In this document: positions 1,670 through 32,673 of the stretch, piece by piece | Layout of the letters: the number at the start of each line of letters is the position of its first letter | Position numbering within the stretch: position 1 is the first letter of the stretch | Assembly (NCBI GenBank): GCA_023254095.1 | Contig: JALNLM010000011.1 | Location: 1-48,298 of the forward strand | DNA length: 48,298 nucleotides | Direction: 5' to 3' | Source: Candidatus Geocrenenecus huangii | GTDB taxonomy: Archaea > Thermoproteota > Nitrososphaeria_A > Caldarchaeales > Wolframiiraptoraceae | Made by a program: the position numbers and the translations under genes | Notes under the pieces: model-generated | Database searches by the model: none | Seen by the model: the letters and a program-made list of their open reading frames with translations, nothing else | What the model was told of the DNA's origin: nothing

Positions 1670-4600
1670 CTATCTACCTCCCACTCCAACTTCAGAGCTA
1701 ATAGAAACCATTAATTGTCTAAACTCTTCCTCCATCTTCTTCTCCAGCTCGTCGAATAAGTCGAGTCTATCGTTAAGTATAGTCGACTTAGACCTTATCA
1801 GCTCCGCAATAATCTTCATAGCTCTTATGTCTTTCAATTGTACACCTCTCTCAAGAGCGTGCGCAGCCAATCTTTGGAATTTAACATATAGTTGAAGCAT
1901 TTTAACTTGTTTCTCAGGTTTGCATACAGAGTCTACTTCATCATATGCAGACTGCTGTAGGAACCCTTCCCTAATCATTCTGGCAACGTCCAATATGAGC
2001 TTTTCATCATCTGGCAATGCTTCCGGTCCTAGAAGCCTAACAATCTCAAGTAGCTCATCTTCACGTCTAAGAATCTGGTAGAATTCGTGCCTAAGCTTAA
2101 ACCATTCTTTATCGATGTTCTCTTCCCACCATCTCGCTACAGTCTCAACGTACGCGCTGTAAGACTGTATCCAGTTTATAGCTGGATAATGTCTAGAATA
2201 TGCAAGGTTCGGGTCTAGAGCCCAGAACACTCTTACAAATCTAAGTGTATGGGTTGTTACAGGCTCTGTGAAGTCGCCTCCAGGAGGTGAGACAGCTCCA
2301 ACAATTGTTACTGACCCGATCCTTTCAGGTCTACCCCACGTCTTAACTCTACCGGCCCTCTCATAGAATTCTGCAAGTCTAGAGCTTAGATAACTTGGAT
2401 AACCTTCTTCAGCGGGCAACTCCTCCAGCCTCCCACTAATCTCCCTTAATGCTTCAGCCCACCTACTCGTCGAGTCAGCTACGAGCAAGACATCGTAACC
2501 CATATCTCTATAGTATTCTGCGATGGTCACTCCAGTGTATATGCTTGCTTCTCTAGCAGCTACAGGCATATTGCTGGTATTAGCTATAAGTATAGTTCTC
2601 TCCATTAATGGTCTACCAGAGTAGGGGTCGATCATCTCGGGGAACTTTATCAGGATCTCGGATTCTTCATTCCCTCTCTCCCCACATCCAATATGTAAAA
2701 TAACCTTGGCATCACTCCACTTGGCGAGTTGGTGTAGGGTAACTGTATTGTGGAGTAGGCATGGAATGTGGCCTCCGACAAAATTGTGCACGTAGGGGAC
2801 TGTCAAATCATAGACTGTGAAGTCTCCAAAGATAATATCAACATCTTTTACCTCGTCGAAGAATACATCTTCTAATGCTCTAATCAACGTTGATACGAGG
2901 ATACACGAATGCTCTCCTTCAAGTTGGAATATTGGCAAAGCTTCTCCCAGAGAAGCCTGAACCTCAGTATGGGTTTCAACATATTCTCTGATGATGGAAG
3001 CTTTCTCCAAATCTTTAACTTCTTCAAGTATATTCAAATAAAATCTCTTGAGCTCGTTCATCCCTGAAATCAATATTTTATTTTCTCTGCCTTCATTCTC
3101 CTCTCTCCCGATCACGACTTTATAGAGTATGTTAAGCCTAGTCAGCAAATATGAGAGCAACTCTATGAGTTCTCTTGATGTAGAAGATATCTCTACCGTG
3201 CCCTTGTTGAACGACCCTCCACCTAAGTAGTATCCCCTAATAAATCCTGCAATTACATCATCAGGCGACATAAGAATTATCTTCGGGATAGCCGGCTTCC
3301 CAGATTTCCCTACTACTGGAAATCCAATAGAACTAAGAATCTTCACTAGAGATATATTGTTTATTTCGGTCCCTCTCTTATCCTTGAATATCTTTTCTCT
3401 ACCATTTACCTTGAATATCTCTCTAAGCAGCTGGTTGAAACGGGAGACAACGAGTCTATTACGATTCGTAAATCTTAAGCCATGTTTCGTAATTACTCCG
3501 CTAGACATCATCAACCCTATGAACTCGGCAAACTTGGAAGTCATGTACCGGGGCAGTCTTACTCTTTTTCCTCTACCATGACTTTTAACAGTAAATTCAA
3601 GTGGGAGTTCTCTACCGAGATGTCTGGATAGTTTTATTAAGAATCCTAACGTTGGCTTATGCCTACTGCTACGATATGATATAAGAGTCCAATAGTTTAC
3701 GTTGATGGCTTTTGCTAAAGCTTTGAGCGACATAGCTTCTTGCTCAGCTTCTCTGAACATTTCTTTAACAAGCTTGAGATCTTCTTCTCCACATAAATGC
3801 AAGTCATGGATTTCTTCCAGCGGGATAGGTTGGTAGATGTTTTTGATAGATAATTTACGAGGCATAGCTAAAAGATCTCCCTTAGATATGCTATAAGCAG
3901 GCATCTCCAATATTCTACCTGTCTCGGGATCAAGCTTGAACAATTTATGTAATGGTGTAATCTTAATCTCTCTACCGGAAGAAGTAACTAATCTTACCAG
4001 ACACTTGGATCTCCCTCTATAGATGTGGGATACCTCGAGTTCTCTTAACCTCTCTCCATCGAAACCTATAATCTTCAACCCCTCTACAGGAATTAACACT
4101 TCTTCTAAACCATCATTCATGCTAGTGCCGGCGGAAGCTTTCCTAAACAATTCATCTATCGGTACAATTGTTCCATCAGAAAGTAGGATTGGTGTTCCAG
4201 GTGGTACGCATTTCCCTGTTCCGAAAGCTCCTGGAATACATCCTGTCCCCCCTTTCGCCATCGGGAATAATGTGTCCAAAACTCTTTGACCCGTTATGAG
4301 CGGGACCACGGGATCCAATCTTTCCCTAAAAGGTCTAGGCTGTCTTACTGGCCATCTATGATACATTTTTAATTGTTCTTCACCTCTGTTCGTTCTTATC
4401 GTCGCTATCGTTTCTTCAACAGTGTATTCTCCTTCATCAGCGATCCCCACTATTTCTCCTCCTTTACTATCTGGTGGAACCATGACTTTATGCTGTATCA
4501 ATGGGGTTTCCTCAACTACTCCAATAGTATCTCCAGCTCCAACTCTCTGACCCTTCTTGACCGTTGGCGTAAACTTCCACTTCTTATCTAGAGCTATAGG

Positions 4601-4930
4601 CGGTACGTGTACTCCACGTTTAATGAATGGACCGACAGTTCTAGCTATGCTTAGTAATGGTCTCTGAACTCCATCGTAGATGCTTCCAATTAACCCGGGG
4701 CCAAGCGCTACAGTTAATGGCTGTCCTGTCCCATAGACTGGCTCACCAGGCCTAAGACCACTTGTATTCTCGTAGACCTGTATGAAGGCCACGTCTCCTG
4801 TTAGCTTTATTATCTCTCCGATAAGCCTCTCTTCACCTACGTACACTGTTTCATACATTCTTGCACCCATCATCCCCTCTGCTCGGACAGCTGGACCTGC
4901 AACCCATATTATCCTACCATGTACAGTCAT
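1670..4930 (-). CDS. atpA: A/V-type ATP synthase subunit A, intein-containing
   Basis: Walker A GAFGTGK|T split by an insertion; [20 protein letters not shown] and [12 protein letters not shown] motifs; 598 aa after intein removal. Confidence 0.97.
2747..4210 (-). mobile_element. Intein (488 aa) in the AtpA P-loop, with an HTH-like segment and a degenerate LAGLIDADG endonuclease
   Basis: Starts at Cys241 ([10 protein letters not shown]); block B ITPLHKLF; block [13 protein letters not shown]; ends HN followed by extein Thr; removal restores GTGKTVT. Confidence 0.95.
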
Positions 4931-14822: not shown

Positions 14823-15953
14823 TCAAGATACCGCTCCATATCTTGCAGCCCACTCCATCATCCTCTTCAAAGACTCCATTCTTATGCTCGGTTTGACTTT
14901 CTTCATAACTTCTAGAAAGTCGTCCATTGTTATCTTTCTCGGCTTGTCGCCTCCACCTCTTTCGAAAAATTCGCTTACAACCTTAAGCTGCACCTCCATG
15001 CATACCTGGGAGATGTCTGCTCCACTGTATCCCTCCGTCAATCTTGCAAGCTCGTTAAAATCTATGCTACTATCCAAGTCAAGCCTTTTAGTATAGTGCT
15101 TAAGCATCCTAAGCCTAGCCTCCATGTCTGGTAATGGTATGTATATCCTCTTCTGGAAACGTCTTATGAACGGTTCATCGAGAAGCCACGGCTTATTCGT
15201 CGCAGCTATCACGTATATTCTAGGAGTTCTACCTTTATCTTGGAGACCATCCATCTCTTTTAAAAGCTGATTCCTTGCTCTAGCTTCTCCTCCAACCTCG
15301 TTCTCTCTAAAAGCAGTTAATGAGTCAACTTCATCTATCAAGATTATGACGGGTTTCCCTTCCCTTTCATATTTTCTAGCTTCCTCAAATAGTGCAGCAA
15401 TGTTTTTCTCCGATTCTCCAAGCCACTTAGACATGATCATTGATGCATCAGCCTGAAGAAAAACAGCATCTATCTCATTGGCAGCAGCAGCTGCAAGCAT
15501 GGTCTTTCCACATCCAGGAGGGCCGAAAAACAGTATTCCACGGGGCCACCCGAGAGGGAAGAATTCCGGTCTTAGAGATGGATATATGATACTTTCTTTG
15601 AGAGCCTTCTTAGCTTCTTCCAATCCTATCACATCATCCCACTTTACAGGTGGAGGGTCTATTATGTGATAGCCTTCATGTTGTTTGCCATTCTTCGTTG
15701 GAGTATAAGCTGATTCCAAGCTCTTCTCAAGTAGAGCTTCAAGCCTTTCTTTATACTGCTTCGCTTTCTCCTCGTAGACTCTTTTCATTACAGGGTCCTC
15801 TGTAAATCTAATCAGTTTCAAGAGAAGCTGGATAGCTTCTTTATAGTTTGCAACCGCCTCCTCCCTCATACCCAGCTTATCATATTTTACAGCTTCACGT
15901 GCACGTTCAGCAGCCAGCTTCTCCAACTCTCTCATGTAAACCCTCAGAAACAT
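14823..15953 (-). CDS. cdvC: Vps4/CdvC-like MIT-domain AAA+ ATPase
   Basis: N-terminal MIT three-helix pattern (AREAVKYDKLG...AVANYKEAI...KAKQYKERLEAL); GPPGCGKT, SKWLGESEK, IDEVD and ATNKPW...RRFQKRIYIPLP motifs. Confidence 0.9.
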   Translation of the reverse strand: MFLRVYMRELEKLAAERAREAVKYDKLGMREEAVANYKEAIQLLLKLIRFTEDPVMKRVYEEKAKQYKERLEALLEKSLESAYTPTKNGKQHEGYHIIDPPPVKWDDVIGLEEAKKALKESIIYPSLRPEFFPLGWPRGILFFGPPGCGKTMLAAAAANEIDAVFLQADASMIMSKWLGESEKNIAALFEEARKYEREGKPVIILIDEVDSLTAFRENEVGGEARARNQLLKEMDGLQDKGRTPRIYVIAATNKPWLLDEPFIRRFQKRIYIPLPDMEARLRMLKHYTKRLDLDSSIDFNELARLTEGYSGADISQVCMEVQLKVVSEFFERGGGDKPRKITMDDFLEVMKKVKPSIRMESLKRMMEWAARYGAVS

Positions 15954-16067: not shown

Positions 16068-17300
16068 ATGTTTAAGGACGGTATAGTTTTAAGAACGACA
16101 TATTTATCCATGTATGGGATGAGCTCCGTCGACCTGAGAGATGCAACCAATAGATTCTTTAGGTCAGACCGAGGATTAGCATGTAAAGTTGTAAAGATAA
16201 TTGAAACATTATGGAAGAGTGTAAGATCTAAAGGCGTTGATGAATTGAAGATCATGAATTTCTGTGGAACACACGAGTGGGCCACAGTCCATTACGGTTT
16301 AAGAACACTCCTGCCAGAAGGTATAGATATTGTAGCGGGACCAGGATGCCCCGTATGTATTACACCATCTTTCTATGTTGAGAACGCTGTCAAGCTCTCC
16401 TTAGAAGGGGTAAGAGTCTACACATATGGAGATGCTTACAAGCTTCCAGCCGTTAGGAAGATAAACGATGCCAGAAGTCTCGCCGAAGCAAGATCCAACG
16501 GTGGTGAAGTTTCGATAGTGTATAGTCTACCCGATGCGATCAGAGATGCTAGGGAGAATACGAAGGAATCAGTATTCTTCGCGATCGGGTTTGAAACAAC
16601 GTATCCAATCTATGCTTCAACAATACTGAAGAAGATGATCCCGGAAGACTTCAGCTTCATTATTGCTGGAAGATTGACTCCGCCGGCGGCAGAATACGCT
16701 GTAGATAAGGTTGGAAGAGTCGATGCGGTAATAGCTCCTGGACATGTATCAGCAATAATTGGTGGAGAAGCTTGGAAGCCTCTATCCGAGAAGTATAGCA
16801 TACCAACTGTAGTATCCGGATTCGAGCCGCTTGACATATTGATATCTATTGCGGAAATCCTAAAACAGAAATATTATGGAAAACCTAGAGTTGTCATAGA
16901 GTATACTAGGGCTGTATCCTGGAATGGTAATAGTGTTGCTAAGAACATGGTTAAGAAGGTATTTGAAGAATGTGATGCGGCATGGAGAGGTATAGGATTT
17001 ATTCCCGGAAGCGGATACAGATTAAGAGACGAATACGCTAGTTTAGATGCATTTCAGAGATATGGAATAAGAGAGCTGGACGAAACTAAATGGAGCTACG
17101 ATCTATCACCTGGATGTAGATGCGGAGAAGTAATAATAGGTAAGATAAAACCAGTAGAATGCCAACTCTTCATGAAAAAATGCACACCGAATTCTCCATA
17201 CGGTCCATGCATGGTATCGTCAGAGGGTGCGTGCTCTATATGGGCTAGATCTTCTCTTCAAGTTATATCCCAATCGAAGAAACTATCCCTTAAACTCTGA
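16068..17300 (+). CDS. hypD: Hydrogenase maturation protein HypD
   Basis: CGTHE, GPGCPVC, GFETT, PGHVS and C-terminal GPCMVSSEGAC motifs; true start probably 16110 or 16119. Confidence 0.96.
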   Translation: MFKDGIVLRTTYLSMYGMSSVDLRDATNRFFRSDRGLACKVVKIIETLWKSVRSKGVDELKIMNFCGTHEWATVHYGLRTLLPEGIDIVAGPGCPVCITPSFYVENAVKLSLEGVRVYTYGDAYKLPAVRKINDARSLAEARSNGGEVSIVYSLPDAIRDARENTKESVFFAIGFETTYPIYASTILKKMIPEDFSFIIAGRLTPPAAEYAVDKVGRVDAVIAPGHVSAIIGGEAWKPLSEKYSIPTVVSGFEPLDILISIAEILKQKYYGKPRVVIEYTRAVSWNGNSVAKNMVKKVFEECDAAWRGIGFIPGSGYRLRDEYASLDAFQRYGIRELDETKWSYDLSPGCRCGEVIIGKIKPVECQLFMKKCTPNSPYGPCMVSSEGACSIWARSSLQVISQSKKLSLKL

Positions 17301-17543
17301 TGAGGCATGAAACCTGCGAGAACATCCTCAACGGCATCATCCGATATGAATAAGTAGATGCTTGGCAAAGTTAGAGACTTTAAAAACCTCTGATGGTCTT
17401 GATAAGAGATTATCCAGGATAGGAAAAGATACCGCTTAAATAAGAGTTAGGCTTAGCCTACTATAAAGAAGCAGGCATCCATTTTCATCTTAATTAGATA
17501 GTTTACTACTATAAACATCTAGATTGGAGATATATCGTGGAAG

Positions 17544-18731
17544 ATGTGGGGTATTCTGGGTATGCAGAACCTGGAGAGATATGAGAGGCAGTTAAGGATA
17601 GAGGGATGGAGACAGGATAAGCTTGCTGAATCAACTGTTATGGTTATTGGGGTTGGAGCTATAGGATGCGAGGTGGCGAAAAATCTTACTTTAATGGGTG
17701 TTGGAAGATTGATAATAGTAGATAATGACGTAGTTGAAGTATCCAACCTCAGTAGACAGATGCTCTTCACAGATGATGATGTAGGTAGACCTAAGACTGT
17801 GGCCGCAAAAGAAAAACTTGTAAAAATGAATCCGCTGGTTATAGTAGACCAATACTATAGTGATGTCAGAGAATTGAGTGAAGATCTTTTCAGGAAAGCC
17901 GAAGTGGTCTGCTCATGTTTAGATAACTGGCCTGTAAGAAGATGGGTTAACTCAATGTGTATTGAGCTAGATAAGCCTTTAGTAGATGTAGCGATGGAGG
18001 GACTTTACTCAAACCTCCAGGTAGTGATTCCCGGCAAAACAGCCTGCTTAGAATGTCATGGAGAAGATCTAATCCCTAGAGAGATACAGCTTGCTGAATG
18101 CACCCTAAGGAGGAGAAAGCCTGAAGACTTGAAGAAAGATCTAGAAGAACAAAAAATACATGTAAGTCTCGATCTAGTTGAAAGACTCTTCGAAGTAGGT
18201 ATAAAGACTATTTTCGATATAAAATACTCTCAAGCACAGATACTTGACAAACTGGATGAAGATGTTAGAATCAAGGTTAGAGAGATACAGGAATCACTTA
18301 AGCCTAAGATGCCTGCTCTCCAAAGTGTCGCTGCCACCATCGCGGGGATAGCAACCACGGAGATTGTAAAGATACTCCATGGAGAATCTCTTGGAAGAAT
18401 ACTTAACGGACTTCTAGTCTACGATGGCTACTCCACTAGATTCACTAAAGTAAAATTAATGAGGAAGATTGAGTGCTTCGCATGCGGAGAACATGTAAAA
18501 ACAGAGGGAGCCGAGATCTCTGTAAGCTTAGATGATAGGGTAATAGATTTAAAGAAGAAGATCGCTGAAAGCTTCGGTTTCCCGGATCCAGAGATACTCT
18601 ACAAGAAATGGAGGCTACAAGATGACCAAACACTGAGAGAAGTAGGAATAAAAGACGGCGATATAACATATGTAGAGACTAGTAGAAGGTTCACTCCTCT
18701 ACCATTAAAGCTAATTCTTAAAACATCATAG
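17544..18731 (+). CDS. Ubiquitin-activating enzyme E1-like protein (ThiF fold, catalytic Cys, C-terminal ubiquitin-fold domain)
   Basis: RYERQ, GVGAIG, DNDVVEVSNLSRQ, Zn motifs CLEC/CFAC, ECT catalytic-type Cys; C-terminal DRVIDLKKKI...LQDDQTLREVGIKDGD resembles ubiquitin; start may be 17562. Confidence 0.9.
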   Translation: MWGILGMQNLERYERQLRIEGWRQDKLAESTVMVIGVGAIGCEVAKNLTLMGVGRLIIVDNDVVEVSNLSRQMLFTDDDVGRPKTVAAKEKLVKMNPLVIVDQYYSDVRELSEDLFRKAEVVCSCLDNWPVRRWVNSMCIELDKPLVDVAMEGLYSNLQVVIPGKTACLECHGEDLIPREIQLAECTLRRRKPEDLKKDLEEQKIHVSLDLVERLFEVGIKTIFDIKYSQAQILDKLDEDVRIKVREIQESLKPKMPALQSVAATIAGIATTEIVKILHGESLGRILNGLLVYDGYSTRFTKVKLMRKIECFACGEHVKTEGAEISVSLDDRVIDLKKKIAESFGFPDPEILYKKWRLQDDQTLREVGIKDGDITYVETSRRFTPLPLKLILKTS

Positions 18732-18806
18732 AATAATTTATTTCTGAAGTAGAAAGAATACATATATACTGATAAACTAGGCCATCTATCTCGGTGGATT
18801 CACATA

Positions 18807-19067
18807 ATGAAGAGGATAAAGATAGGTAAGCCTGTAAGTAAGGGACTCTGGAATCCTTGGGCTATTGAAGAAGTTAAGAAGACCACTCCCCCTCCTCCCA
18901 AGCTTGAGACTAAGCGTATATGTGTAGTGTGTCTTTCAGAGATTAGTGAAGGAGCCCCTGTAATCGAATGTCCTTATTGTGGAGCTATTGGGCATGAAAA
19001 CTGTTTTGAGGATTGGATAACTATGAAGAGTAGATGTCCCTTATGTAGAAGACCGATAACCCTTTAA
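18807..19067 (+). CDS. Small RING finger protein (C4HC3), putative E3 ligase
   Basis: C-x2-C-x12-C-x2-C-x4-H-x2-C-x3-W-x6-C-P-x-C; directly downstream of E1. Confidence 0.88.
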   Translation: MKRIKIGKPVSKGLWNPWAIEEVKKTTPPPPKLETKRICVVCLSEISEGAPVIECPYCGAIGHENCFEDWITMKSRCPLCRRPITL

Positions 19068-19112
19068 TATATTGACCAAACTACGTAGAGAAACAGTACC
19101 TAAACTTGATCA

Positions 19113-19129
19113 TCACCAATATCTTCAGG
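19113..19129 (+). repeat. Left copy of a 17-bp inverted repeat (TCACCAATATCTTCAGG)
   Basis: 16/17 identical to the reverse complement of 20628-20644. Confidence 0.7.
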
Positions 19130-19179
19130 GATACCATTATAAAGAATTAAATTTAATATAGTCTTGATAACATTTTAGG

Positions 19180-19572
19180 GTGGAGAAATTGTCTGGAGAA
19201 TCTAGGAAAGAAGAAAAAAGAATTGAGATAGAGATTATCCCTGAATATCTAGATACTCCTAGTGGGAAGAAGGTCGCAACATTTGATTTCGTCATGGGTG
19301 TTGCCAAGGGTTTAGAAGTCTTAGATGAGGCCGAAGCAAAACTAGAGGAAAGAATAGAAAGAATAGAGAAAGGTGAGTATTTAGCCAAACTTATCGAGAG
19401 GCTTGATAAGTTTGAAGTAAGAATTGCGGCCATTGAGAAAACTCTATCAAATTTGGAGAAGAACATCCAGACTGAGATAGGCGATATTTCAGATAAGGTC
19501 TCAGCATTGATTGATGCTTTTCATGAGCTAACTGAAAAACTACAGAGGATGGAAACTTTTTCTAAGGACTAA
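19180..19572 (+). CDS. Hypothetical protein with a short N-terminal globular segment and a coiled coil
   Basis: Heptad-rich E/K/L/I C-terminal two thirds; TTATAAA upstream at 19137-19143. Confidence 0.75.
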   Translation: MEKLSGESRKEEKRIEIEIIPEYLDTPSGKKVATFDFVMGVAKGLEVLDEAEAKLEERIERIEKGEYLAKLIERLDKFEVRIAAIEKTLSNLEKNIQTEIGDISDKVSALIDAFHELTEKLQRMETFSKD

Positions 19573-20428
19573 GATAAGCTCTTCTTAATTCTCCCAAGAG
19601 CTTCTCAAGCCTAGACCTCTTATCTTCCAGTTCTCTAATCTCGGTCTCGATCCTTCTCTTCCTCTCACTTAAAGTATTTATTTCCGCTCTAAGCTGAGAG
19701 GCCTTCTTTTCTAATTCTGCTGCAGCTTCTTCTTTTTCTCTCAGCTTGGCCAGGGATTCCTTCAACTCAGCCTCTCTCCTTACAAGTCTCTCAAGCCTAA
19801 TTTCTCTAAGCTTAAAATCTCTCACCATCTCTTTAATCATCTCTTCAAGTCTGCTTCTCGCTTCCTCAATGCCCGATAAATATCTCTGAGAAAGCTCAGC
19901 GACCTTCTGTTCAAGTTCTCTCTTCTTCTCCTCTAAAGTATTTATCATCTCTTCCCTCATGCTCAATTCTCTTTCTTTCTTCTCTAATTCTTCTCTCCAT
20001 TTTCTCAACTCTTCCTTCATAGATTCTAGCTCCGTCCTCTCCTTGACCAGCTGCTGGGTTTCCTGCCTAATCATTTCTCTTTCCTTGGTTAATGCTTCAA
20101 CTATATCTTTTATCCCCTCCTGAACTGAGAGCAGCATGTTTTCATAGTATCTAACTATTGTAAGTTCTTCGGAGACCTTTTCAAGTTCTCCTATGAATGG
20201 CGCGATCTTTCCCTCGAAGACTGATGGAAAAGATGAAAGTGTTGACGTTAACGTTATTAGGTTATTCACATTTCTCCCAATATCTTCCAGTGAATCGTTT
20301 AGTCTATCAACTGCCTCCGTAAGCTTCTCAATTATACCTTGCTTGGTACTTGATAGTTCTTGAGAAAACTTTTGCTCTAATTCTTCAAGCCACTTCTCCT
20401 TCTTTGAAGAAGATGAAAATATGCTCAT
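19562..20428 (-). CDS. Long coiled-coil hypothetical protein
   Basis: 288 aa, nearly continuous E/K/R/L heptads; convergent with the previous gene and overlapping it by 11 nt. Confidence 0.8.
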   Translation of the reverse strand: MSIFSSSSKKEKWLEELEQKFSQELSSTKQGIIEKLTEAVDRLNDSLEDIGRNVNNLITLTSTLSSFPSVFEGKIAPFIGELEKVSEELTIVRYYENMLLSVQEGIKDIVEALTKEREMIRQETQQLVKERTELESMKEELRKWREELEKKERELSMREEMINTLEEKKRELEQKVAELSQRYLSGIEEARSRLEEMIKEMVRDFKLREIRLERLVRREAELKESLAKLREKEEAAAELEKKASQLRAEINTLSERKRRIETEIRELEDKRSRLEKLLGELRRAYLSP

Positions 20429-20627
20429 TACACATCACTGATAGAATTGTGCTAGAGTTAGTATTGATAAATGAAATATAAGTTTTGCGATTATAAAAGC
20501 ACTAAATAAAGTGTACAACAATTATGCAGAAAGGCCGCAATGAAGTTAAGCTTGATTTAGTTGATTTAAATGTGGAAATAATGAGGTAACATCTAGTTTA
20601 CTGAAATGGCCATCAAACACCAGTAAT

Positions 20628-20644
20628 CCTCAAGATATTGGTGA
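20628..20644 (-). repeat. Right copy of the 17-bp inverted repeat (TCACCAATATCTTGAGG on minus strand)
   Basis: 16/17 identical to 19113-19129; 20/24 when extended. Confidence 0.7.
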
Positions 20645-20756
20645 CGCCCACATAATCAGGAATCTAGTAAAACTTTATTTTTCTAGGTTCTCGGGAAAAT
20701 TCTAAAAGAGAAGTTTATAAAAGAGATGACAGACTTATGTGTAGAGGCGTATAGTA

Positions 20757-21488
20757 TTGATTGTTACACATGAAGAAGTTGTATCAAGGTTTTTTAAGAT
20801 TGGCGCAGGTGGGGCCGTCGCAGGAGCTATACACATCCTTACATTGCTACTAGGATGGTATATTGAGACGAATGGAGAAGCAGTCTTAACTCTTACCGGA
20901 TATAATTTCATCGAATCTTTTCTATTTTCTGTAGTTGGTGGTTTACTAGCTGGTTTCAGCTTACTTATAGCATACCTGGTTAAGAAGTTGAATGCAATTA
21001 AAGTGCTGCTCGGAGGATTAACACTGACTGGTGGACTTTTATCTCTATTCTCTCCAATATACATATATGTATTCAAGATACTTGGAGTAAATCTTAGAGG
21101 ATACCCGGACATAGGGTTTTTCGCAGCAATATTTACAGCGATCATTGAGCTCGGCATAGGTGCTCTCATACTCTTGACGCCCTTGAAGAAAGAGGTAATC
21201 TATCCAATGGAGATTCCGCCAACCGTCGCGTATCCTGATACTTTATCTACTGAGCCAAGTGGGCCACAGCCTAGATTGAGGGGTGAGAGAAGTAGGACTT
21301 CTGTTGCACAAATAGAGATTGCAGAAGACGTTGAAGAAGGAGTATGCACTATATGTTATTATCCGTTAACCAGCGGGAATACTGTAAGATGTAGCGCATG
21401 CGGAGCACTCTTTCACAGAGACTGTATAGATGCATGGGTTAATCTAAATCATTCTTGTCCAAACTGTAAAGCGTTAATGTATAGCTGA
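20757..21488 (+). CDS. Membrane-anchored RING finger protein (4 TM plus C-terminal C4HC3 RING), putative E3 ligase
   Basis: Four hydrophobic segments, a Pro-rich linker, then CTIC-x11-CSAC-x4-H-x2-C-x3-W-x6-CPNC at 21345-21467. Confidence 0.85.
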   Translation: MIVTHEEVVSRFFKIGAGGAVAGAIHILTLLLGWYIETNGEAVLTLTGYNFIESFLFSVVGGLLAGFSLLIAYLVKKLNAIKVLLGGLTLTGGLLSLFSPIYIYVFKILGVNLRGYPDIGFFAAIFTAIIELGIGALILLTPLKKEVIYPMEIPPTVAYPDTLSTEPSGPQPRLRGERSRTSVAQIEIAEDVEEGVCTICYYPLTSGNTVRCSACGALFHRDCIDAWVNLNHSCPNCKALMYS

Positions 21489-21603
21489 GAAGGCATGTTT
21501 TGATTGAGCTCAGATCAGCGACAATTTTGTTTTATTGATCCTGCTAAAACGTAAGTAGATTTATATTGATGCAAGATCATGCTCAAGATCTAGGTAGACT
21601 GAA

Positions 21604-23085
21604 TTGAAGAAGATTTTAGACATTGATCAACGATACGAAGCCGTCATGAGGCTTGCATTAGAGAGGGGCTTCTTTTATCCTGCCTCGGAGATATATAGTG
21701 ATGCACCTGCAGGTTTCTGGGATTATGGTCCTTTAGGAGCATCTCTCAAGAGGAAGTTCATCGAGCTATGGAGGAGAGAACTCGTCAGAAGAGATAACAT
21801 GCTGGAGATTGATGGAGCCCAAGTTCTCTCGAAGAACGTTTTCATGGCTTCAGGCCACTTGAAAAGCTTTGTAGACCCTATCGCAAAGTGTCCAAAATGC
21901 AACTCGGTGTACAGAATAGATAAACTGATCGAGGAAACAATAGGCTTACATATACCTGAAAGACTTGACCTAAACAAGATAGGAGAGATAGTTAAAGAAA
22001 AGGATATTCGATGCCCTAAGTGTGGAGGAGAGTTAACTGATCTCTCATACTTCAACATGATGTTTAGACTGGGAGTAGGGGCCATGGGTACAGATGCCTA
22101 CCTTCGCCCCGAAACATGCCAATCAATCTTCGTAGATTTTCTAAGATTGTTTAAAGTTATGAGATGTAAGCTCCCCATAGGCTTCGCTCAAATAGGAAAA
22201 AGCTTCAGAAACGAGATCTCTCCAAGGCAAGGATTACTCAGGATGAGAGAATTTTACCAAGCAGAGATCGAGGTGTTCTTCAACCCCAAGAAGTCTAACG
22301 ACATACCTAAAGCAGAATCCTTAATCGATTATGATCTAAGATTGCAATTACTAGATTCAGATAAGATCTTGGAGCTTACTTGCAGGGAAGCATTAGAGAG
22401 AAAGATCGTGTCAAGCAAGCTCGTCGCATATTATCTAGCTCTTATCCAACAATTCTATGAAAAAGTCGGGATACCTAGAGAGAAGATAAGGCTTAGACAA
22501 CTAGGAGAAGATGAGAAAGCATTCTACGCTGTAGAAGCATGGGACCTGGAAGTAGAGACTAGTCTGGGATGGATAGAGCTGGTTGCATGCAATAATAGAG
22601 GAGACTACGACTTGGGAGGTCATCAGAAAATGAGCGGGCATGAGATGACCGTACTAGATGATGGAGAAAAGGTTCTACCCCATGTCTTCGAGCTTTCAAT
22701 GGGCGTTGACAGAAGCATATACTGTATTCTGGAGACAGCTTACAGTAACGTAGATGGAAGAAACGTCTTAAAAATAAATCCTGACCTAGCTCCAATACAT
22801 GCTGCAGTACTCCCCCTAGTTTCAAAAGAACCCCTAGTAAGTAGGGCTAGACAAATACATGATATGCTTAGAGTAGATTTCGACATTGTATATGATGAAT
22901 CCGGCAGTATAGGTAGGAGGTATGCTAGGCAAGATGAGATAGGTACTCCCTACTGCATAACAGTAGATTATCAAACCCTAGTAGATGATACGGTGACAAT
23001 CAGGTATAGGGATACAACGCTTCAATTTAGGATAGAAGCTTCAAAATTATACGATTTCCTTTCTAAGAGCTTCAAAATATACTAA
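21604..23085 (+). CDS. glyS: Glycine--tRNA ligase (archaeal/eukaryal type)
   Basis: DYGPLG, YLRPETCQ, QIGKSFRNEISPRQGLLRMREF, ELSMGVDR and SIGRRYARQDEIGTP motifs. Confidence 0.96.
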   Translation: MKKILDIDQRYEAVMRLALERGFFYPASEIYSDAPAGFWDYGPLGASLKRKFIELWRRELVRRDNMLEIDGAQVLSKNVFMASGHLKSFVDPIAKCPKCNSVYRIDKLIEETIGLHIPERLDLNKIGEIVKEKDIRCPKCGGELTDLSYFNMMFRLGVGAMGTDAYLRPETCQSIFVDFLRLFKVMRCKLPIGFAQIGKSFRNEISPRQGLLRMREFYQAEIEVFFNPKKSNDIPKAESLIDYDLRLQLLDSDKILELTCREALERKIVSSKLVAYYLALIQQFYEKVGIPREKIRLRQLGEDEKAFYAVEAWDLEVETSLGWIELVACNNRGDYDLGGHQKMSGHEMTVLDDGEKVLPHVFELSMGVDRSIYCILETAYSNVDGRNVLKINPDLAPIHAAVLPLVSKEPLVSRARQIHDMLRVDFDIVYDESGSIGRRYARQDEIGTPYCITVDYQTLVDDTVTIRYRDTTLQFRIEASKLYDFLSKSFKIY

Positions 23086-23468
23086 CATGGCTCAGTTAAA
23101 TCTTACTCCGCCTAGAAGTAGATTATCCCCACTCTGGATAATTCTAAATCTAGAGAATTTCACTGATTGCTCATTCAACTGATTAACGTAACTCTTTTCA
23201 GCAACTTGATAAAATATCTAACACCTCGTAAAAAGCTTCTAACGGTATTTCAAGTTTCTTCATTGATTACTTCGACTTCCGCTGAATAGAGGATGAAACT
23301 GTATAAGTGTCAAGGGGGAGTGGCCGGCTTATCCACAAGTAGTAATAACCTTCCTGGGGAAATATGAGAAGTGAACCCTTCAAGGTTGCCGGAAGAGTAC
23401 CAGAATACCTATATATAATTATGGATACATATAACATGGGTAGATTAGTTTCAATGTGGTGAAATACT

Positions 23469-24134
23469 GTGACTTTACCTAGAGATAGAGAAGAAGAATT
23501 CAGGATTAGAATTTTTACTCTGATTCAAGACCAGATCAGGAAAGTTATAGATATGTATAAGATTGCTCTAAGCATGCTTGAAAGCTTTGTACAAGATCCC
23601 AACCCCACAAAGCTTGAAGATTTCTATCAGAAGATCTTGAAAGCCGATGAGTCAGCTAAAGATACTACTAGGATGATTGAGATGGAGATGAGCAATGTCG
23701 GCGCATTACTCACCAACAAGGAAGATTTTATCAGACTAGTAACAGAGATTGATGAAATAGCTGACACCGTTGAAGGAATAGCTTATAGAATGGTCAATCT
23801 AGCGAAGATGAAGACAAAACTTAGTAGAGAACTAAATAGTAAACTATTAGAGTTGGGCGATATGGTTCTCTCAACATTAAACAGGCTTCGAGAAACACTA
23901 CTAGCTATAACATTAAATGCGACTACATTCCAGCAGAAGATGAGGGAGACAGAAGAACACGAGAAAAAAGTCGACGATATATACCGTACACTCGACTTAT
24001 CAATACTTACAAGTGAGTTAAAGATCGCACCACTTCTACTTACAAGAGAGATTGTATGGATGCTTGAAGAAATAGCAGATACAGCTGAGAGAATAGTCGA
24101 TACTCTTAGAGCACTATCATTAACAATATTTTAG
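23469..24134 (+). CDS. DUF47/PhoU-like phosphate transport regulator
   Basis: All-helical; KEDFIRLVTEIDEIAD, EHEKKVDDIYR and LEEIADTAE repeats typical of DUF47. Confidence 0.8.
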   Translation: MTLPRDREEEFRIRIFTLIQDQIRKVIDMYKIALSMLESFVQDPNPTKLEDFYQKILKADESAKDTTRMIEMEMSNVGALLTNKEDFIRLVTEIDEIADTVEGIAYRMVNLAKMKTKLSRELNSKLLELGDMVLSTLNRLRETLLAITLNATTFQQKMRETEEHEKKVDDIYRTLDLSILTSELKIAPLLLTREIVWMLEEIADTAERIVDTLRALSLTIF

Positions 24135-27255: not shown

Positions 27256-27888
27256 TTATTGTTTTCTTCCAGTAATTATGTATGATAGAGAGTCCGCTAT
27301 GTAGCACGTATGGTCTGCTATTCTTTCAAGGTATCTCAATATCAAAGCTATCGAAAGTAGGCATCCCGTATCTATCCTCCCACCCATCTGGATTAGGTAT
27401 TTAATGTTCTCAGAGTAGAACTTATCCACTTGGTCATCTCTCTTCCTTACTTCTTCGGCTTTCTTCAAATCTTTACTCAGATATGCTCTTCCAGCTTCTT
27501 CAACCATCTCTAAGACTATCTGTGAGAGTTCTCTTACCGATGTAAAATCGCATCCACTCTCAGGGATCATTGCAACGATCTCGGATATGTTTGCGGCATA
27601 CCTACCGATCCTGGAGAAATCATAGGATACCTGTATTGCAGATTTTATTTCTCGGAGATCAGAAGCCACTGGCTGGAATCTCGCTATAAGCTGGACTGCT
27701 AGCTCGCTTACTTCATCCATCATGAATAGTAACTCATCGGACATCTTCCTAACGTCTTCGATTCTGTCAACTCTCGCCAAGACAGATTCTATACTCTTCT
27801 CTAACGTTTTCTCGGCTAAGTTGATCATATCGTTGATTAAACCGTTAAGTTTTAGTAGGCCGTAATCTATAGGTCTCTTTAAGCTCAT
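27256..27888 (-). CDS. phoU: Phosphate signalling protein PhoU
   Basis: QPVASDLR, RIGRYAANI, DDQVD and YLERIADH motifs; last gene of the pst operon. Confidence 0.93.
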   Translation of the reverse strand: MSLKRPIDYGLLKLNGLINDMINLAEKTLEKSIESVLARVDRIEDVRKMSDELLFMMDEVSELAVQLIARFQPVASDLREIKSAIQVSYDFSRIGRYAANISEIVAMIPESGCDFTSVRELSQIVLEMVEEAGRAYLSKDLKKAEEVRKRDDQVDKFYSENIKYLIQMGGRIDTGCLLSIALILRYLERIADHTCYIADSLSYIITGRKQ

Positions 27889-27906: not shown

Positions 27907-28668
27907 CTATCCCATCCTCCCCACAACATATTTCTCTGTTAATTCATGTCTAGGTCTAGTGAAGACCATAGAGGTTTCACCGATCTCGATTAATTCACCC
28001 ATGTATAAGAACGCTACGTAGTCACTTATTCTTGCAGCCTGCTGAGGGTTGTGTGTAACTATTATTATCGTATAGTTTTCTTTTAATTCAAGCATCAACT
28101 CTTCAATTTTAGATGATGCCACTGGGTCTAGGTTAGCTGTAGGCTCATCCATGAGAACTATCTTCGGTTTTAACGCTAAGGCACGGGCTATACATAGTCT
28201 CTGCTGCTGTCCACCACTAAGCATCGAGGCAGGTTTTTTTAGGTCGTTCTTCACCTCATCCCATAGGTATGCTTGCTCCAAAGCTTGTTTAACAAGTTCA
28301 TCTAATTGTGATTTATTTTTTACTAGCCCATTGAGTTTAGGACCTAAAGCTACGTTCTCATATATTGAGAGATGTGGGAATGGGTTAGGTATTTGGAAGA
28401 CCATCCCAAACTGTCTACGAACCCACGTAATATCAACGTTATCATTATATACATCTATGCCATCTATTCTTACCTGACCTTCTACCCTTGCATGAGGATT
28501 CAGTTCAAGCAATCTATTCATCGCTCTTAGCAAAGTACTTTTACCGCATCCGGATGGCCCCATTATAGCGAAAATTATGTTCTTAGGTATTTTGAAGCTG
28601 ATATTCTTGAGTATGTGTTTATCACCATACCATACGTTTAAGTTGTTAACCTCGATAGCCCAAGTCAT
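27907..28668 (-). CDS. pstB: Phosphate ABC transporter ATP-binding protein
   Basis: [28 protein letters not shown] and VTHN motifs; likely start 28668 (track start 28764 lies inside pstA). Confidence 0.96.
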
Positions 28669-29498
28669 ATCTTTACCTCCTTTACTACTATTCTTGAGAT
28701 TACGAATATCGCCAATATTATTGATAGCAGGATTGCTGACGCCCCCCATGCTACCTGATGCCATCTCTCATAAGGTGATAGTGCAAAGTTGTATATTAGT
28801 AATGGTATAGCATTTATAGGTTTGTCTAATCCTTCAAAGTATGAGAAAGACGTTCCTAGGATCGTAAATAGTAGGGGGGCTGTTTCACCAGCTGCTTTGG
28901 CCATCCCGATGAGTAGAGCCGTCAAAACACCACGTCTAGCAGCACTTAATAATACTCTCAGGTAAGCTTTAGGATGTGAGATGCCGAGACTGAATGCGGC
29001 TTCCTTCAAACTGTACGGTATAGATTTGTAGGCTTCTCTAACATTTAATGCGATGTATGGAATGATGACTACGGAGAGCGCAAATGCTCCAGCGAAAGCA
29101 TTAAACCTCTTAAGAGGGACTACAAGTATCGAGTATGCAAACAATCCTATAATTATCGTTGGGAATTCCACCATTATCTGGAGGAAGAGCTGAGTATACT
29201 GTGCCAGCTTTGTATGGGAGAACTCTGAGAGATATAGTCCTGTAAAGAAACCTATACATCCGCCGATCATTAATGCTAAACTCATTAAGATAAGGGACCC
29301 GGCTAATGCTGGACCTATTCCACCTGCTTTACCACCTATAGGAGGAGGTGGAAAATCTATCAAGAAAGAAAGACTTACATATCTTAAGCCTTCAGAGTAT
29401 ATGTTGATTATTATCATGAATATCGGGATAGCAGAGATAGTCGCTAGTAGAGAGATCGTTCCAAGCATTATCTTCTCTTTTAACTTTCTTTTATTCAA
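28665..29498 (-). CDS. pstA: Phosphate ABC transporter permease PstA
   Basis: [13 protein letters not shown] loop [19 protein letters not shown]. Confidence 0.95.
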
Positions 29499-30394
29499 CC
29501 TTTTATCATCACCTTTTTTATGAAGTATAATCCTACTAGGTTTATGACTAAACCTATCAAGAAGAGTATAGTTGCTCCACCGTAAAGTGCGGGAACCATA
29601 TACTCGTACGCTTCAGCGTTTGGAAACTGGTTAGCTATCAAGCTAGAGATAGTATAACCCATATCGAATAAGCTTTTGGGAATGTTAAGAATGTTCCCAA
29701 CAACCATCGCCACAGCCATGGTCTCGCCCATAGCCCTACCCAATGCGAGGAACAAACCCGCGAAGATGGCGGACTTAATATATCCGAGCATAGTTCTTAC
29801 CGTCTCCCATTTTGTCATGCCAATACTGTAAGCTGCTTCCTTCAAATTGTATGGAACAGCTGTATACGCTTCACGGATTATGCTGGAGGCAAAAGGCACT
29901 ATCATTATAGCTAGTAAGACTCCGGCAGTGAAGAGATTTGTCGGGGTAGGCTTAGTAGAAAATAGAGGTATGAAGCCTAGATAATTATGTAGTGGAAGCA
30001 TTAAGTAATTATGAAGTATTGGTGCGAGGACGTAGAGCCCCCATAGACCATATATTACTGAGGGTAAACTCGCCATAAGGTCGGATATGCTATTCATTAA
30101 GCTTCTAAATCTTTGTGGGATAATTTCGGAGGAAAATACTGCTAAAGATATGGCTAGAGGGGTGGCGATACTTATCGCTATAGTTGAAGTTATTAGAGTC
30201 CCTAAAAGAGCTGGTAGAATACCGTAGCTCTCCTTAACAGGATTCCAGACACTACTAAAAACGAAGTCTAATCCATATTTTATGAATATTGGACTAGAAG
30301 TAGTGACCAACGAAACTACGATCCCTACAACTATCGTTAATGTTGTGAATATGAAAAAAAATAAGAGAATTTGAAAAATCTTCTCGCTCCTCAT
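29495..30394 (-). CDS. pstC: Phosphate ABC transporter permease PstC
   Basis: PSVIYGLWG, KEAAYSIG and GRAMGETMAV motifs. Confidence 0.95.
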   Translation of the reverse strand: MRSEKIFQILLFFFIFTTLTIVVGIVVSLVTTSSPIFIKYGLDFVFSSVWNPVKESYGILPALLGTLITSTIAISIATPLAISLAVFSSEIIPQRFRSLMNSISDLMASLPSVIYGLWGLYVLAPILHNYLMLPLHNYLGFIPLFSTKPTPTNLFTAGVLLAIMIVPFASSIIREAYTAVPYNLKEAAYSIGMTKWETVRTMLGYIKSAIFAGLFLALGRAMGETMAVAMVVGNILNIPKSLFDMGYTISSLIANQFPNAEAYEYMVPALYGGATILFLIGLVINLVGLYFIKKVMIKG

Positions 30395-30401
30395 ACTTCA
30401 T

Positions 30402-31544
30402 CTATCTAAGTAACTTAAGACCTTCTAAACCTATCTCCGCCACCTCTGGTGGGAGGGGATCGTATCCTGGAACAATGTTTTCCTTCTTCTGTCCTTCAGT
30501 TAATACCCATTCAAAGAATTCTTTGAGTATAGCAACTTTGACGGGATCTTTATATTCCTGCTTTAAGATAATGAAGGAGAAGGAAGTCAGAGGGTAACTA
30601 TCTAAGCCGGGCGGGTCTACTGTCTCATCTGGGAATATGCTTGACCAGTCTTCATGAGCTTTTGGAAGAATCTTTGTGAGAGCTGTCAATGCGGATCTTA
30701 TTGATTTATCTGTCGGCAGAACATATTGCTCATCTCTATTCTTTATTAATGCTATCTTGAGTCCGACTTGATAGGCATATGCAGTCTCTACATATCCTAT
30801 TGAGTATTGATTCTGCTTAATGGCTGCAGCGACACCTTCATTTCCTTTTCCTCCTACACCGTTGCCGAGTTGGTCTACAGGCCACTGTACTGTAAAGTCT
30901 GACCCTACTTTTTCTTTCCAATCTTCAAGAACTTTCGATAGATAGGCTGTGAAAACCCTCGTCGTCCCACTACCATCCGACCTATGTACGGCGATGATTT
31001 TCTCGTGCGGCAGATTTAATTCAGGATTCAATTCTTTTATACGGGGATCATCCCAATACATTATTTCTCCAAGATACATTCTCGCTACAACCTCACCTGT
31101 CAATTTTAGCTTCTCTGACTCTACATTAGGAATATTGTGCACGACCACTACCGTACCTACGATAACTGGAAACTGGATGATTCCACCCTTCGCTTGAAAT
31201 TCATTGTATATATCTTTTTTTAATGGAGGGTCGCTTCCAGCGAAGTCGATTAATCCTTCCCGAAAGTTCGATTGTCCTGCACCACTACCGATAGATTGAT
31301 AGTTTACTGAAATTCTACCCTTCGTCAGCTCGTAGAACTTCGATGCCCACGCCTGCATTTGAGGATTCAAAAAAGATGCCCCTGCACCATTAATCGTCCC
31401 AATGTAGACTGACGTAGTCTTTATCTCAGTTTTTGTCTCGGTTACCGATGTCGTAGCGGGAGCTAGCAATCCCGAAAAGAGTAAGAGCCCGATAACTACT
31501 ATTATCACCACGGTCGCCAATATCAGGATCTTTCCTGTTTTCAT
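30402..31544 (-). CDS. pstS: Phosphate ABC transporter substrate-binding protein
   Basis: N-terminal anchor and Thr-rich linker; GAGASF, YQSIGSGAG, DFAGSD and HRSDGSGTT motifs. Confidence 0.96.
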   Translation of the reverse strand: MKTGKILILATVVIIVVIGLLLFSGLLAPATTSVTETKTEIKTTSVYIGTINGAGASFLNPQMQAWASKFYELTKGRISVNYQSIGSGAGQSNFREGLIDFAGSDPPLKKDIYNEFQAKGGIIQFPVIVGTVVVVHNIPNVESEKLKLTGEVVARMYLGEIMYWDDPRIKELNPELNLPHEKIIAVHRSDGSGTTRVFTAYLSKVLEDWKEKVGSDFTVQWPVDQLGNGVGGKGNEGVAAAIKQNQYSIGYVETAYAYQVGLKIALIKNRDEQYVLPTDKSIRSALTALTKILPKAHEDWSSIFPDETVDPPGLDSYPLTSFSFIILKQEYKDPVKVAILKEFFEWVLTEGQKKENIVPGYDPLPPEVAEIGLEGLKLLR

Positions 31545-31665: not shown

Positions 31666-32673
31666 GTGAGGGAACATATCCGGAGAGTTCAATTAACAGG
31701 TAGAACCACGTTAACGATATCTCTTCCAAAGGATTGGGTAGAAACAATAGGATTGAAACCTGGAAGCATAATGAGATTAGTACCTAGAAATAGTTTAGGA
31801 TTGATTTTAATGCCTGAGGGTTTAAAAGAAAGTAGAAGAGAGGCAAGACTTTTAATTGAAGGAGATAAAGAGGCGGAGGCGCTGCTCAGAGAAATCATAT
31901 CCCTTTACCTAGCCGGATACGATATTATTAGGTTAGAGTTCTCCGTACCCCACCTCCACTTGAAACTGTATTTAAAAGAGAATATGAGGAAGAAGCTAAT
32001 GGGCATGGAGATCTTGAATGAGAGCTTAACAGAGATGCTACTTCAATGTTTCGCTAAACATGTCGAGCTACCGTTAGAAGATGCATTAAAAAGACAGTCA
32101 GAACTTGCAGCATCTATGCAGAGAGATGCGACGAACTCTCTACTCTTAGGAGGACGAGAGCTAGCTGAGGAAGTAATACAGAGAGATGACGAGGTGGATA
32201 AACTATTCTATTTCATTAGTAGACAGCTTAATCTAGCCGCTGAACTACCTCACGTATTACATGAACTTAAAATAGAGAATACGATGGCCTGCCTAAGCTA
32301 CGCGATGGTGACAAAAGCGATCGAGCGAATAGGAGACCATGCATCTAACATAGCACATACATCGTTAAACATTAATGAGAAAATAGAAGAAGAAATTGCC
32401 ATGGAGATAGAGAAACTAGATGAACAGGTAAAGAACATATTTCTCGAAAGTATAACAGTTCTTCTAAAGAAAGACAGTAAAGCTGCAAATAACCTTATAA
32501 GAGAAATTGAGAAGATAAAGAAGCTGTACACGGAGGTTTTGGAAAAAGTTATGGCGAGGAAGATAGATTCTAAGACGATCCCACTGCTGAGGGGAGCTTT
32601 AGGAGACTATATAAGGATAGCAGAGTATAGTGCAGATATAGCTGAACAAGCAATATTCCTCTCGCTTCTCTAG
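31666..32673 (+). CDS. AbrB-PhoU phosphate uptake regulator
   Basis: RRVQLTGRTTLTISLPKDW AbrB-type N-terminus; RDDEVDK and IERIGDHA PhoU repeats; divergent from pstS. Confidence 0.92.
   Translation: MREHIRRVQLTGRTTLTISLPKDWVETIGLKPGSIMRLVPRNSLGLILMPEGLKESRREARLLIEGDKEAEALLREIISLYLAGYDIIRLEFSVPHLHLKLYLKENMRKKLMGMEILNESLTEMLLQCFAKHVELPLEDALKRQSELAASMQRDATNSLLLGGRELAEEVIQRDDEVDKLFYFISRQLNLAAELPHVLHELKIENTMACLSYAMVTKAIERIGDHASNIAHTSLNINEKIEEEIAMEIEKLDEQVKNIFLESITVLLKKDSKAANNLIREIEKIKKLYTEVLEKVMARKIDSKTIPLLRGALGDYIRIAEYSADIAEQAIFLSLL

Follow-up and report, generated by a model that had tools for sequence, protein, structure and literature searches.

A candidate membrane-embedded RING-type ubiquitin ligase with a claudin-like tetraspan domain next to the ubiquitin genes of a Caldarchaeales archaeon

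A 48,298-nucleotide stretch of the genome of the hot-spring archaeon Candidatus Geocrenenecus huangii (Caldarchaeales, Wolframiiraptoraceae; assembly GCA_023254095.1, contig JALNLM010000011.1, positions 1 to 48,298 of the forward strand), referred to below as the window, was analysed with attention to a gene on its forward strand (20757..21488, TTG start, stop codon 21486-21488) for a 243-residue protein with four transmembrane (TM) helices and a C-terminal RING, which we call TM-RING. We read TM-RING as a membrane-embedded RING-type ubiquitin ligase (E3) of the aigarchaeal (Caldarchaeales) ubiquitin system, with a probability of about 0.7 and with the ligase activity itself putative. Because it adjoins the ubiquitin genes, TM-RING is a good candidate for the tagging of membrane proteins. 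The aigarchaeal ubiquitin operon and its small RING finger protein (srfp) were already known; what is new is the compact claudin-like tetraspan form of the protein, its status as a core gene in a TACK lineage and its place beside a cascade of the type that has been reconstituted.

A RING-type zinc finger

The C-terminal domain of TM-RING (residues 186-243, 21312..21485) carries eight candidate zinc ligands of C4HC3 composition, spaced C197-x2-C200-x11-C212-x2-C215-x4-H220-x2-C223-x10-C234-x2-C237, together with a tryptophan (W227) and the stretch C234-P-N-C237, and the C4HC3 finger with Trp and CPxC of the preliminary description, which had been made from the DNA letters, is thus found in all its parts. 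The finger also has an isoleucine of the type that contacts the ubiquitin-conjugating enzyme (E2), I199, and a basic residue after the last cysteine, K238. Pfam places residues 197-238 on positions 3-44 of the 44-position zf-RING_2 profile (PF13639) with 42.2 bits against a cut-off of 27.3 (E 1e-10). The PHD profile (PF00628) remains under its cut-off (14.3 bits against 24), as does RINGv (PF12906, the MARCH/Doa10 type; 10.5 bits against 21.6, E 0.72), and the term 'RING-variant' that had been attached to the domain does not hold in the MARCH/Doa10 sense. A phmmer search of the PDB sequences gave 35 chains at E up to 0.01, 33 of them RING E3s headed by Arkadia (3.7e-11), RNF165, ZNRF1, RLIM, ZNRF3, RNF38, EL5, gp78, RNF13 and HRD1; the other two are the PHD protein PHF21A (E 0.0035) and one archaeal small zinc finger. 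Aligned with the PDB chains, C215 falls at the canonical ligand 3, Ala217 at the first histidine of a RING-H2 finger and H220 at the second, and it is likely from this alignment that C212, two residues upstream of the ligand-3 position, replaces the ligand-4 histidine. The eight ligands and P235 are invariant in all 27 RINGs aligned (17 from TM-RING proteins and 10 from srfp).

The same identity was obtained from the fold. The RING alone, modelled on the 27-row alignment, reached a predicted local distance difference test score (pLDDT) of 92.7, and in a Foldseek search with this model the top rows were all RING E3s (TMq 0.65-0.73), many of them solved with an E2 bound: RNF12-Ube2d2 came first (E 4.3e-4, TMq 0.70), followed by RNF165 (RNF165-UbcH5-Ub), RNF38, RNF13, RMR1, gp78 and Ring1B. 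VIA-align gave RNF165 at Z 7.4 (root-mean-square deviation, rmsd, 2.0 with 56 residues aligned), ZNRF1 at 7.0, HRD1 at 6.9, and U-boxes; among the fold matches listed by the two programs there are RING and U-box entries and three C1 domains but no PHD entry. The profile, PDB sequence and fold matches together argue that the finger is a RING-H2 derivative of C4HC3 composition with a shifted fourth ligand, and not a MARCH-type RINGv; that the zinc domain is of RING and not of PHD type, on which the earlier proposal of an E3 depended, is also what these matches suggest, although a PHD fold could be missing from such lists.

The membrane domain, its fold and its orientation

Four hydrophobic segments were located by a Kyte-Doolittle scan (residues approximately 15-35, 53-75, 83-106 and 119-142), and they agree with the four helices that had been described earlier and with those of a full-length AlphaFold2 model (5-29, 52-74, 78-109 and 119-140), for which 22 of the 28 relatives identified were used (mean pLDDT 78.9, 83-95 in the TM blocks). 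TM1 (residues approximately 15-32, 20799..20852) contains G23 and H26, both invariant throughout the class, with W34 next to it at the membrane edge. A beta-hairpin follows TM1 directly in the model (strands 33-38 and 43-47), with W34 in it and T47-G48-Y49 at its end, as had been proposed from the letters alone; this outer loop 1 (20853..20903) is free of Lys and Arg and its G48 is invariant. TM2 (helix 52-74, 20910..20978) has the invariant residues S58, G62 and G66, and the short basic cytoplasmic loop KKLNAIK leads into TM3 (78-109, 20988..21083), the longest helix, with invariant S99-P100 and Y102. Outer loop 2 (21084..21110) supplies a third strand (115-117) that pairs with the hairpin in the model, and TM4 (119-140, 21111..21176) has the invariant G120. 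The linker to the RING (residues 146-181, 21192..21299) is predicted to be disordered and cytoplasmic (pLDDT below 50); it is poorly conserved and is Pro-rich, in keeping with the earlier account, with seven Pro between residues 150 and 172.

When the membrane part of the model was compared with known structures, Foldseek returned claudin-3 as the best match (E 7.3e-4, TMt 0.50), then TARPs, claudin-19 and claudin-4, the best rows spanning E 7e-4 to 1e-2 and TMt 0.45-0.56. VIA-align, an aligner independent of Foldseek that was run against 48,161 representatives, gave claudin-15 at Z 13.7 (rmsd 3.3, 137 residues aligned), GARLH4 at 13.4 and claudin-19 at 13.2, with Cav gamma (12.8), MP20 (12.3), claudin-4, three TARPs and a designed claudin fold further down; its nine best rows all belong to the claudin/PMP22/TARP superfamily (Z 13.7-11.3) and generic helical bundles come next at about Z 10. 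As two aligners agree, and as a long TM3 and an outer sheet are in keeping with this fold, we call the modelled fold of the membrane part claudin-like, much as had been suggested earlier (a tetraspan or claudin-like fold), and leave homology to claudins open. No claudin-type Pfam family was found at E up to 10 with 17 TM domains or at E up to 1 with whole TM-RING, and loop 1 (residues 36-52, 17 residues) has no Cys and hence no Cys pair. The loop-1 signature of claudins we take to be a conserved Cys pair and a W-LW motif. In the ESM Atlas the best score for residues 1-150 was 0.77, which is under the noise level stated for that tool. Weak Pfam matches to DUF6114 were seen in 6 of 17 TM domains (best E 0.063), but this family was ruled out: the true DUF6114 gene of the genome lies on another contig (C23; 33.8 bits) and its comparison with the TM profile by hhalign gave a probability of 0.5%.

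The RING is predicted to face the cytoplasm. Averaged over 22 sequences the number of Lys plus Arg is 2.3 in the N-terminus, 0.09 in loop 1, 3.3 in loop 2, 1.9 in loop 3 and 1.7 in the 18 residues after TM4, and by the positive-inside rule both termini, and the RING with them, would therefore lie inside; the earlier argument from the even number of helices had put the RING on the side of the N-terminus as well. Column identity is highest in TM1 (0.84) and TM4 (0.80), compared with 0.72 in the RING and 0.38-0.40 in the linker, the least conserved part. The full set of residues invariant in the class is R11, G23, H26, W34, G48, S58, G62, G66, S99, P100, Y102 and G120, which amounts to more constraint than a plain anchor would need.

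Distribution

A full-length relative of TM-RING was found in 73 of the 76 genomes of the class, including 42 of the 43 of high quality, and every one of the 15 genera is represented. With a profile of the membrane domain alone it was detected in 58 of the 401 genomes sampled from the phylum; these all belong to the four families of the order (f1-f4), and the profile gave no match in the 342 sampled genomes from other families. Searched against 1.84 billion cluster representatives the same profile found 15 proteins, 14 of which belong to the TM-RING family (163-277 residues); the sole outside match (47 positions of a repetitive protein of 955 residues) was judged spurious. As judged from these searches the membrane domain is lineage-specific and single-copy and is always joined to a RING except in truncated records. 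The relatives carry the labels Aigarchaeota, Caldarchaeales and Wolframiiraptor or, in older records, Thaumarchaeota; there is no NCBIfam family for the protein, and in some databases relatives already go by the name 'RING finger protein'.

E2-contact residues and the ubiquitin cascade

In srfp, residues I30, W58 and R69 are needed for ubiquitylation according to the part of the mutant study available (PMC5654768). Their counterparts in TM-RING are I199 (Ile or Leu in 17/17 members), W227 (Trp in 15/17, Tyr in 2) and K238 (Lys in 12/17, Gly in 4, Asn in 1). Co-folding of the RING with its cognate E2 gave 0.42 compared with 0.02 for the best control, with 100% agreement between runs and a partner pLDDT of at least 78. 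A mark of 0.42 is reached by 116 of 157 solved complexes and by 2 of 215 mismatches; the support is weak, and a caveat is that the signal may be memory because RING-E2 complexes have already been solved.

The genome (1.61 Mb, 96% complete) has exactly one E2 (UQ_con 98.7 bits), one ubiquitin (Ub), whose product ends in RTVGG followed by four residues, and a divergent Rpn11-like JAMM peptidase, these three genes lying on a contig other than the window. There are only two zf-RING_2 genes, srfp and TM-RING, 1.7 kb apart. Three CDC48_N ATPases and two Snf7 matches are present in the genome and CdvC is encoded in the window, so routes for extraction and for sorting both exist.

Genes next to TM-RING

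Upstream of TM-RING, on the same strand, lie the genes for an E1-like enzyme (ubiquitin-activating type; 17544..18731, ThiF 204 bits) with a C-terminal ubiquitin-like domain, and for an srfp-type protein of 86 residues with the same ligand pattern as TM-RING (18807..19067). After srfp come a conserved coiled-coil protein of 130 residues (cc130, 19180..19572, forward strand) and one of 288 residues (cc288, 19562..20428, reverse strand), the latter divergent from TM-RING with a shared upstream region of 329 bp. Gene order was compared across four families of the order, with eight loci in all. The arrangement Rpn11, then Ub-E2-E1-srfp-cc130, then cc288 on the opposite strand, then TM-RING-GlyRS-PhoU_div-EndA (GlyRS, glycyl-tRNA synthetase) is complete in six of the eight, one of which is a single-contig genome whose arrangement matches the operon description in the available part of PMC3082918.

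Proposed function and alternatives

In the scheme that we propose, the claudin-like tetraspan would hold TM-RING in the cytoplasmic membrane with both ends inside, and the flexible linker of about 40 residues would let the RING reach around on the cytoplasmic face, where I199 and W227 would serve it to bind the single ubiquitin-charged E2 of the genome and K238 to activate that E2. The acceptors of the ubiquitin would then be lysines on proteins close by, most probably on membrane proteins contacted by the tetraspan within the bilayer, and the tagged proteins could go to the Cdc48/proteasome or the Cdv/ESCRT machinery. The steps that we infer are the binding of E2, the ligase activity, the selection of clients through the TM domain and what becomes of the products; choice of clients by the tetraspan is suggested because of its conservation and because of what claudin-fold proteins such as TARPs do. 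Carried further, the scheme would have the Aigarchaeota run a surveillance of membrane proteins of the type of endoplasmic-reticulum-associated degradation or endocytic downregulation, with the claudin-fold tetraspan reading clients in the bilayer through His26, Ser58 and Ser99-Pro100-Tyr102, the RING ubiquitylating them and Cdc48-proteasome or Cdv/ESCRT removing them. This extension is speculative and, taken whole, we doubt it. If it were true, membrane RING ligases and the claudin fold would have existed in non-Asgard archaea before eukaryotes, and TM-RING would mark the natural substrates of the only archaeal ubiquitin cascade to have been reconstituted.

A number of observations weigh against TM-RING as a membrane E3 of this system. 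Co-occurrence of E2 and TM-RING provides no independent signal because both are near-universal (75/76 and 73/76 genomes), and the conserved gene order may be plain inheritance because all relatives fall in one order. The tightest neighbour of TM-RING is the housekeeping gene for GlyRS (8/8 loci), and the two loci of family f3 have no ubiquitin gene at less than 14 kb from TM-RING; there TM-RING and GlyRS stay adjacent and the E2 is elsewhere in the genome. In one genome that is 95% complete (G062) no TM-RING open reading frame was found, either in the 745 bp that separate cc288 from the end of the contig or at any other place. Five of the 17 members have no basic residue after the last Cys and two have Tyr for W227, and the claudin-like match stands just about 3 Z above generic four-helix bundles, a modest margin for a helical bundle.

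As to what else TM-RING might be, it could be a true E3 whose tetraspan is only an anchor, so that ubiquitylation would be concentrated at the membrane and its substrates would be peripheral or cytosolic proteins there, for example the Cdv/ESCRT-III division proteins, with no reading of clients in the bilayer. The long flexible linker would suit this, as would the CdvC gene 1.6 kb upstream of that for E1 and the two Snf7 matches in the genome. However, the sequence of an anchor need not be conserved, whereas here the conservation of TM1 and TM4 surpasses that of the RING and invariant His, Ser, Pro, Tyr and Gly residues persist in the helices across four families; nor is the CdvC neighbourhood kept in the other loci (a 22-residue match in 1/8), and we consider a mere anchor rather improbable. 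There is even less to be expected of a finger without ligase function, that is a protein-binding or regulatory module such as a membrane tether that keeps the E2 or the substrates of srfp sequestered, or a sink subject to auto-modification, and we see little chance of this. Prokaryotic RING fingers with non-ubiquitin roles were reportedly described by Burroughs et al. in 2011, and the members that lack the basic residue or the Trp, together with the weakness of the E2 co-fold, would fit such a role; against it are the invariance of the eight ligands, of P235 and of Ile or Leu at position 199, the presence of I, W and K in the copy from the window, a complete cascade in the genome and the fact that the nearest relatives of the finger by sequence and by fold are active E3 RINGs.

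The primary job could also lie in the tetraspan, which might be an auxiliary subunit of the claudin/TARP kind, a protein of the envelope or of cell contacts, or else a small channel, with the RING serving as a handle for turnover or signalling. The top structural matches (claudins, TARPs, GARLH4, Cav gamma, MP20) do act as barriers or auxiliary subunits, and the TM domain is highly conserved and has an outward beta-sheet. But the domain bears no sequence relation to the claudin families (Pfam at E up to 10; 14 of 15 profile matches are its own family), its loop 1 of 17 residues has no Cys and, truncated records aside, it never occurs without the RING, all of which makes this the most improbable of the readings considered.

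The aigarchaeal cascade of E1, E2 and srfp is the reference model for a prokaryotic origin of ubiquitylation, and for its reconstitution a surrogate substrate taken from another archaeon was used, as stated in the portion of PMC5654768 at hand. A second RING protein that is membrane-embedded, is a core gene and lies next to the operon points to membrane proteins as targets, and with it the 'membrane RING E3' design, possibly with a claudin fold, would move back into a non-Asgard archaeal lineage. In the part of Nunoura et al. available (PMC3082918) it is stated, srfp being excepted, that 'an apparent homologue of E3 is absent', and several zf-RING_2 genes were counted in aigarchaeotes by Grau-Bove et al. 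(PMC4327156, likewise in part). Our literature search returned no transmembrane RING protein in Aigarchaeota and no claudin-like archaeal protein, although it did not cover Burroughs, Iyer and Aravind 2011 (Mol Biosyst), which may describe TM-RING. The negative rests partly on partial texts of PMC3082918, PMC5654768, PMC6053391, PMC4327156, PMC11188069, PMC11354881, 10.1101/2023.07.25.550441, PMC13328587, PMC4021871 and PMC10547907.

Relation to known proteins

The closest known system is srfp, which comes from the same lineage and is encoded 1.7 kb (two genes) upstream of TM-RING. The two share the I, W and basic residues and the pattern C-x2-C-x11-C-x2-C-x4-H-x2-C-xn-C-x2-C, in which the usual His of ligand 4 is substituted and an additional Cys stands two residues ahead of ligand 3. 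The spacing printed for srfp CSUB_C1477 of Caldiarchaeum subterraneum equals that of TM-RING save for the last spacer (PMC3082918, in the part available), and srfp, a proven archaeal E3, deviates from the usual finger by an extra cysteine, C3B, according to the passages at hand from Hennell James et al. (PMC5654768). The RING of TM-RING is a paralogue of srfp; the two RINGs are nevertheless only 20-31% identical, and srfp is soluble, has about 75-95 residues and is proven active, whereas TM-RING adds a tetraspan domain of 145 residues and a linker and is a putative ligase. Membership of TM-RING in srfp proper was rejected in view of its length (243 residues), its four TM helices and its position two genes further downstream, the true srfp being that at 18807-19067.

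The RING-H2 E3s (Arkadia/RNF111, RNF165/Ark2C, RNF12/RLIM, RNF38 and ZNRF1) are the best matches of the finger in sequence and fold, and have in common with it the stretches FH-x2-C-(I/L/V)-D-x-W and CP-x-C-(K/R). They differ in that their canonical ligand-4 His is Ala in TM-RING, with C212 instead, and nothing outside the RING is related. A membrane part combined with a cytoplasmic RING is also the plan of HRD1/synoviolin, gp78/AMFR, the PA-TM-RING protein RNF13, ZNRF3, the plant protein RMR1 and MARCH/Doa10, and the finger matches the RINGs of HRD1, gp78, RNF13, ZNRF3 and RMR1 in sequence or in fold. However, the TM profile finds only the aigarchaeal family, the membrane parts being unrelated, and RINGv fails, so that membership in the HRD1 or MARCH group was rejected. 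Among eukaryotic E3s we are not aware of any that has a claudin-like tetraspan. With the claudin/PMP22/MP20/TARP/Cav-gamma/LHFPL group the membrane part shares, in the model, a bundle of four helices with both termini on the inner side, a short basic loop between TM2 and TM3, a long TM3 and an outer beta-sheet made from loop 1 and outer loop 2. It differs in having a sheet of three strands and a loop 1 of 17 residues in place of the larger claudin loop, in lacking sequence similarity, the Cys pair and the W-LW motif, and in being archaeal and fused to a RING.

Start and expression of the gene

The TTG start of TM-RING is taken to be right because its relatives share the beginning MIVT(Q/H)EE, identical residues with which the homologues open. 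A TATA-box-like element, TTTATAAAA, was read from the sequence at 20714..20722 on the forward strand, 35-43 nt 5' of the start, and a candidate GAGG lies at 20744-20747, 9 nt ahead of the TTG. A scan for Sigma-70 promoters and terminators gave scores at the level of shuffled sequence, the models not being relevant to archaea. Four metatranscriptome runs were mapped to 17500-23100: two were empty, one gave 4 contig pieces and one 6 reads, and no RNA read fell on 20757-21488, the coverage of these runs being too sparse to judge expression of TM-RING. What little RNA did map, contigs and reads alike, lay mainly on the genes for the coiled-coil proteins and also on that for GlyRS.

Other features of the locus

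The ubiquitin-family domain at the C-terminus of the window E1 (PF00240, 28.8 bits) covers residues 324-374 and matches the UBL/UFD of archaeal E1-like proteins noted in the available part of PMC5654768. The two coiled-coil proteins between srfp and TM-RING belong to no known family and their genes overlap tail to tail; relatives of cc130 and cc288 occur at the same place in 5 and 7 of the 8 loci, respectively, and both proteins may belong to the ubiquitin system. The genome without TM-RING mentioned above (G062; contig C46, 1-745) keeps Rpn11, Ub, E2, E1, srfp, cc130 and cc288, and TM-RING has either been truly lost there or is missing through a break in the assembly.

In the genome to which the window belongs the ubiquitin operon is in two parts, with Rpn11/Ub-E2 followed by hypC on another contig (C23, 1002-3337) and hypD preceding E1-srfp in the window (16068-18731). 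In genomes of the same genus (G049, G052 and G053) the E2 gene lies approximately 3.4 kb upstream of TM-RING, and the E2/hypC and hypD/E1 junctions look like one inversion with breakpoints inside both operons. The CdvC gene (14823-15953, reverse strand) encodes a CdvC/Vps4-type AAA ATPase with MIT, AAA and Vps4_C domains, which scores 483.8 bits with the NCBIfam CdvC model and so falls under its cut-off of 650; hypD lies between this gene and E1, and this closeness of CdvC to E1 is not kept in the other loci compared.

The GlyRS gene next to TM-RING in a family-f4 genome (G038, contig C6, 10033-11754) is an open reading frame of 573 residues that aligns to the window GlyRS in two separate pieces, which suggests an insertion in the longer protein. 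Four PhoU-domain proteins, two of them fused to an N-terminal DNA-binding domain of the MazE/AbrB type, are encoded in an 18-kb part of the window (23469-24134, 27256-27888, 31666-32673 and 40731-41825) and flank a phosphate ABC transporter operon (27907-31544). The catalytic subunit of the A-type ATPase (1670-4930, reverse strand, 1086 residues) contains an intein that interrupts it and carries a LAGLIDADG endonuclease domain (Intein_splicing at residues 249-728, LAGLIDADG_3 at 558-634).

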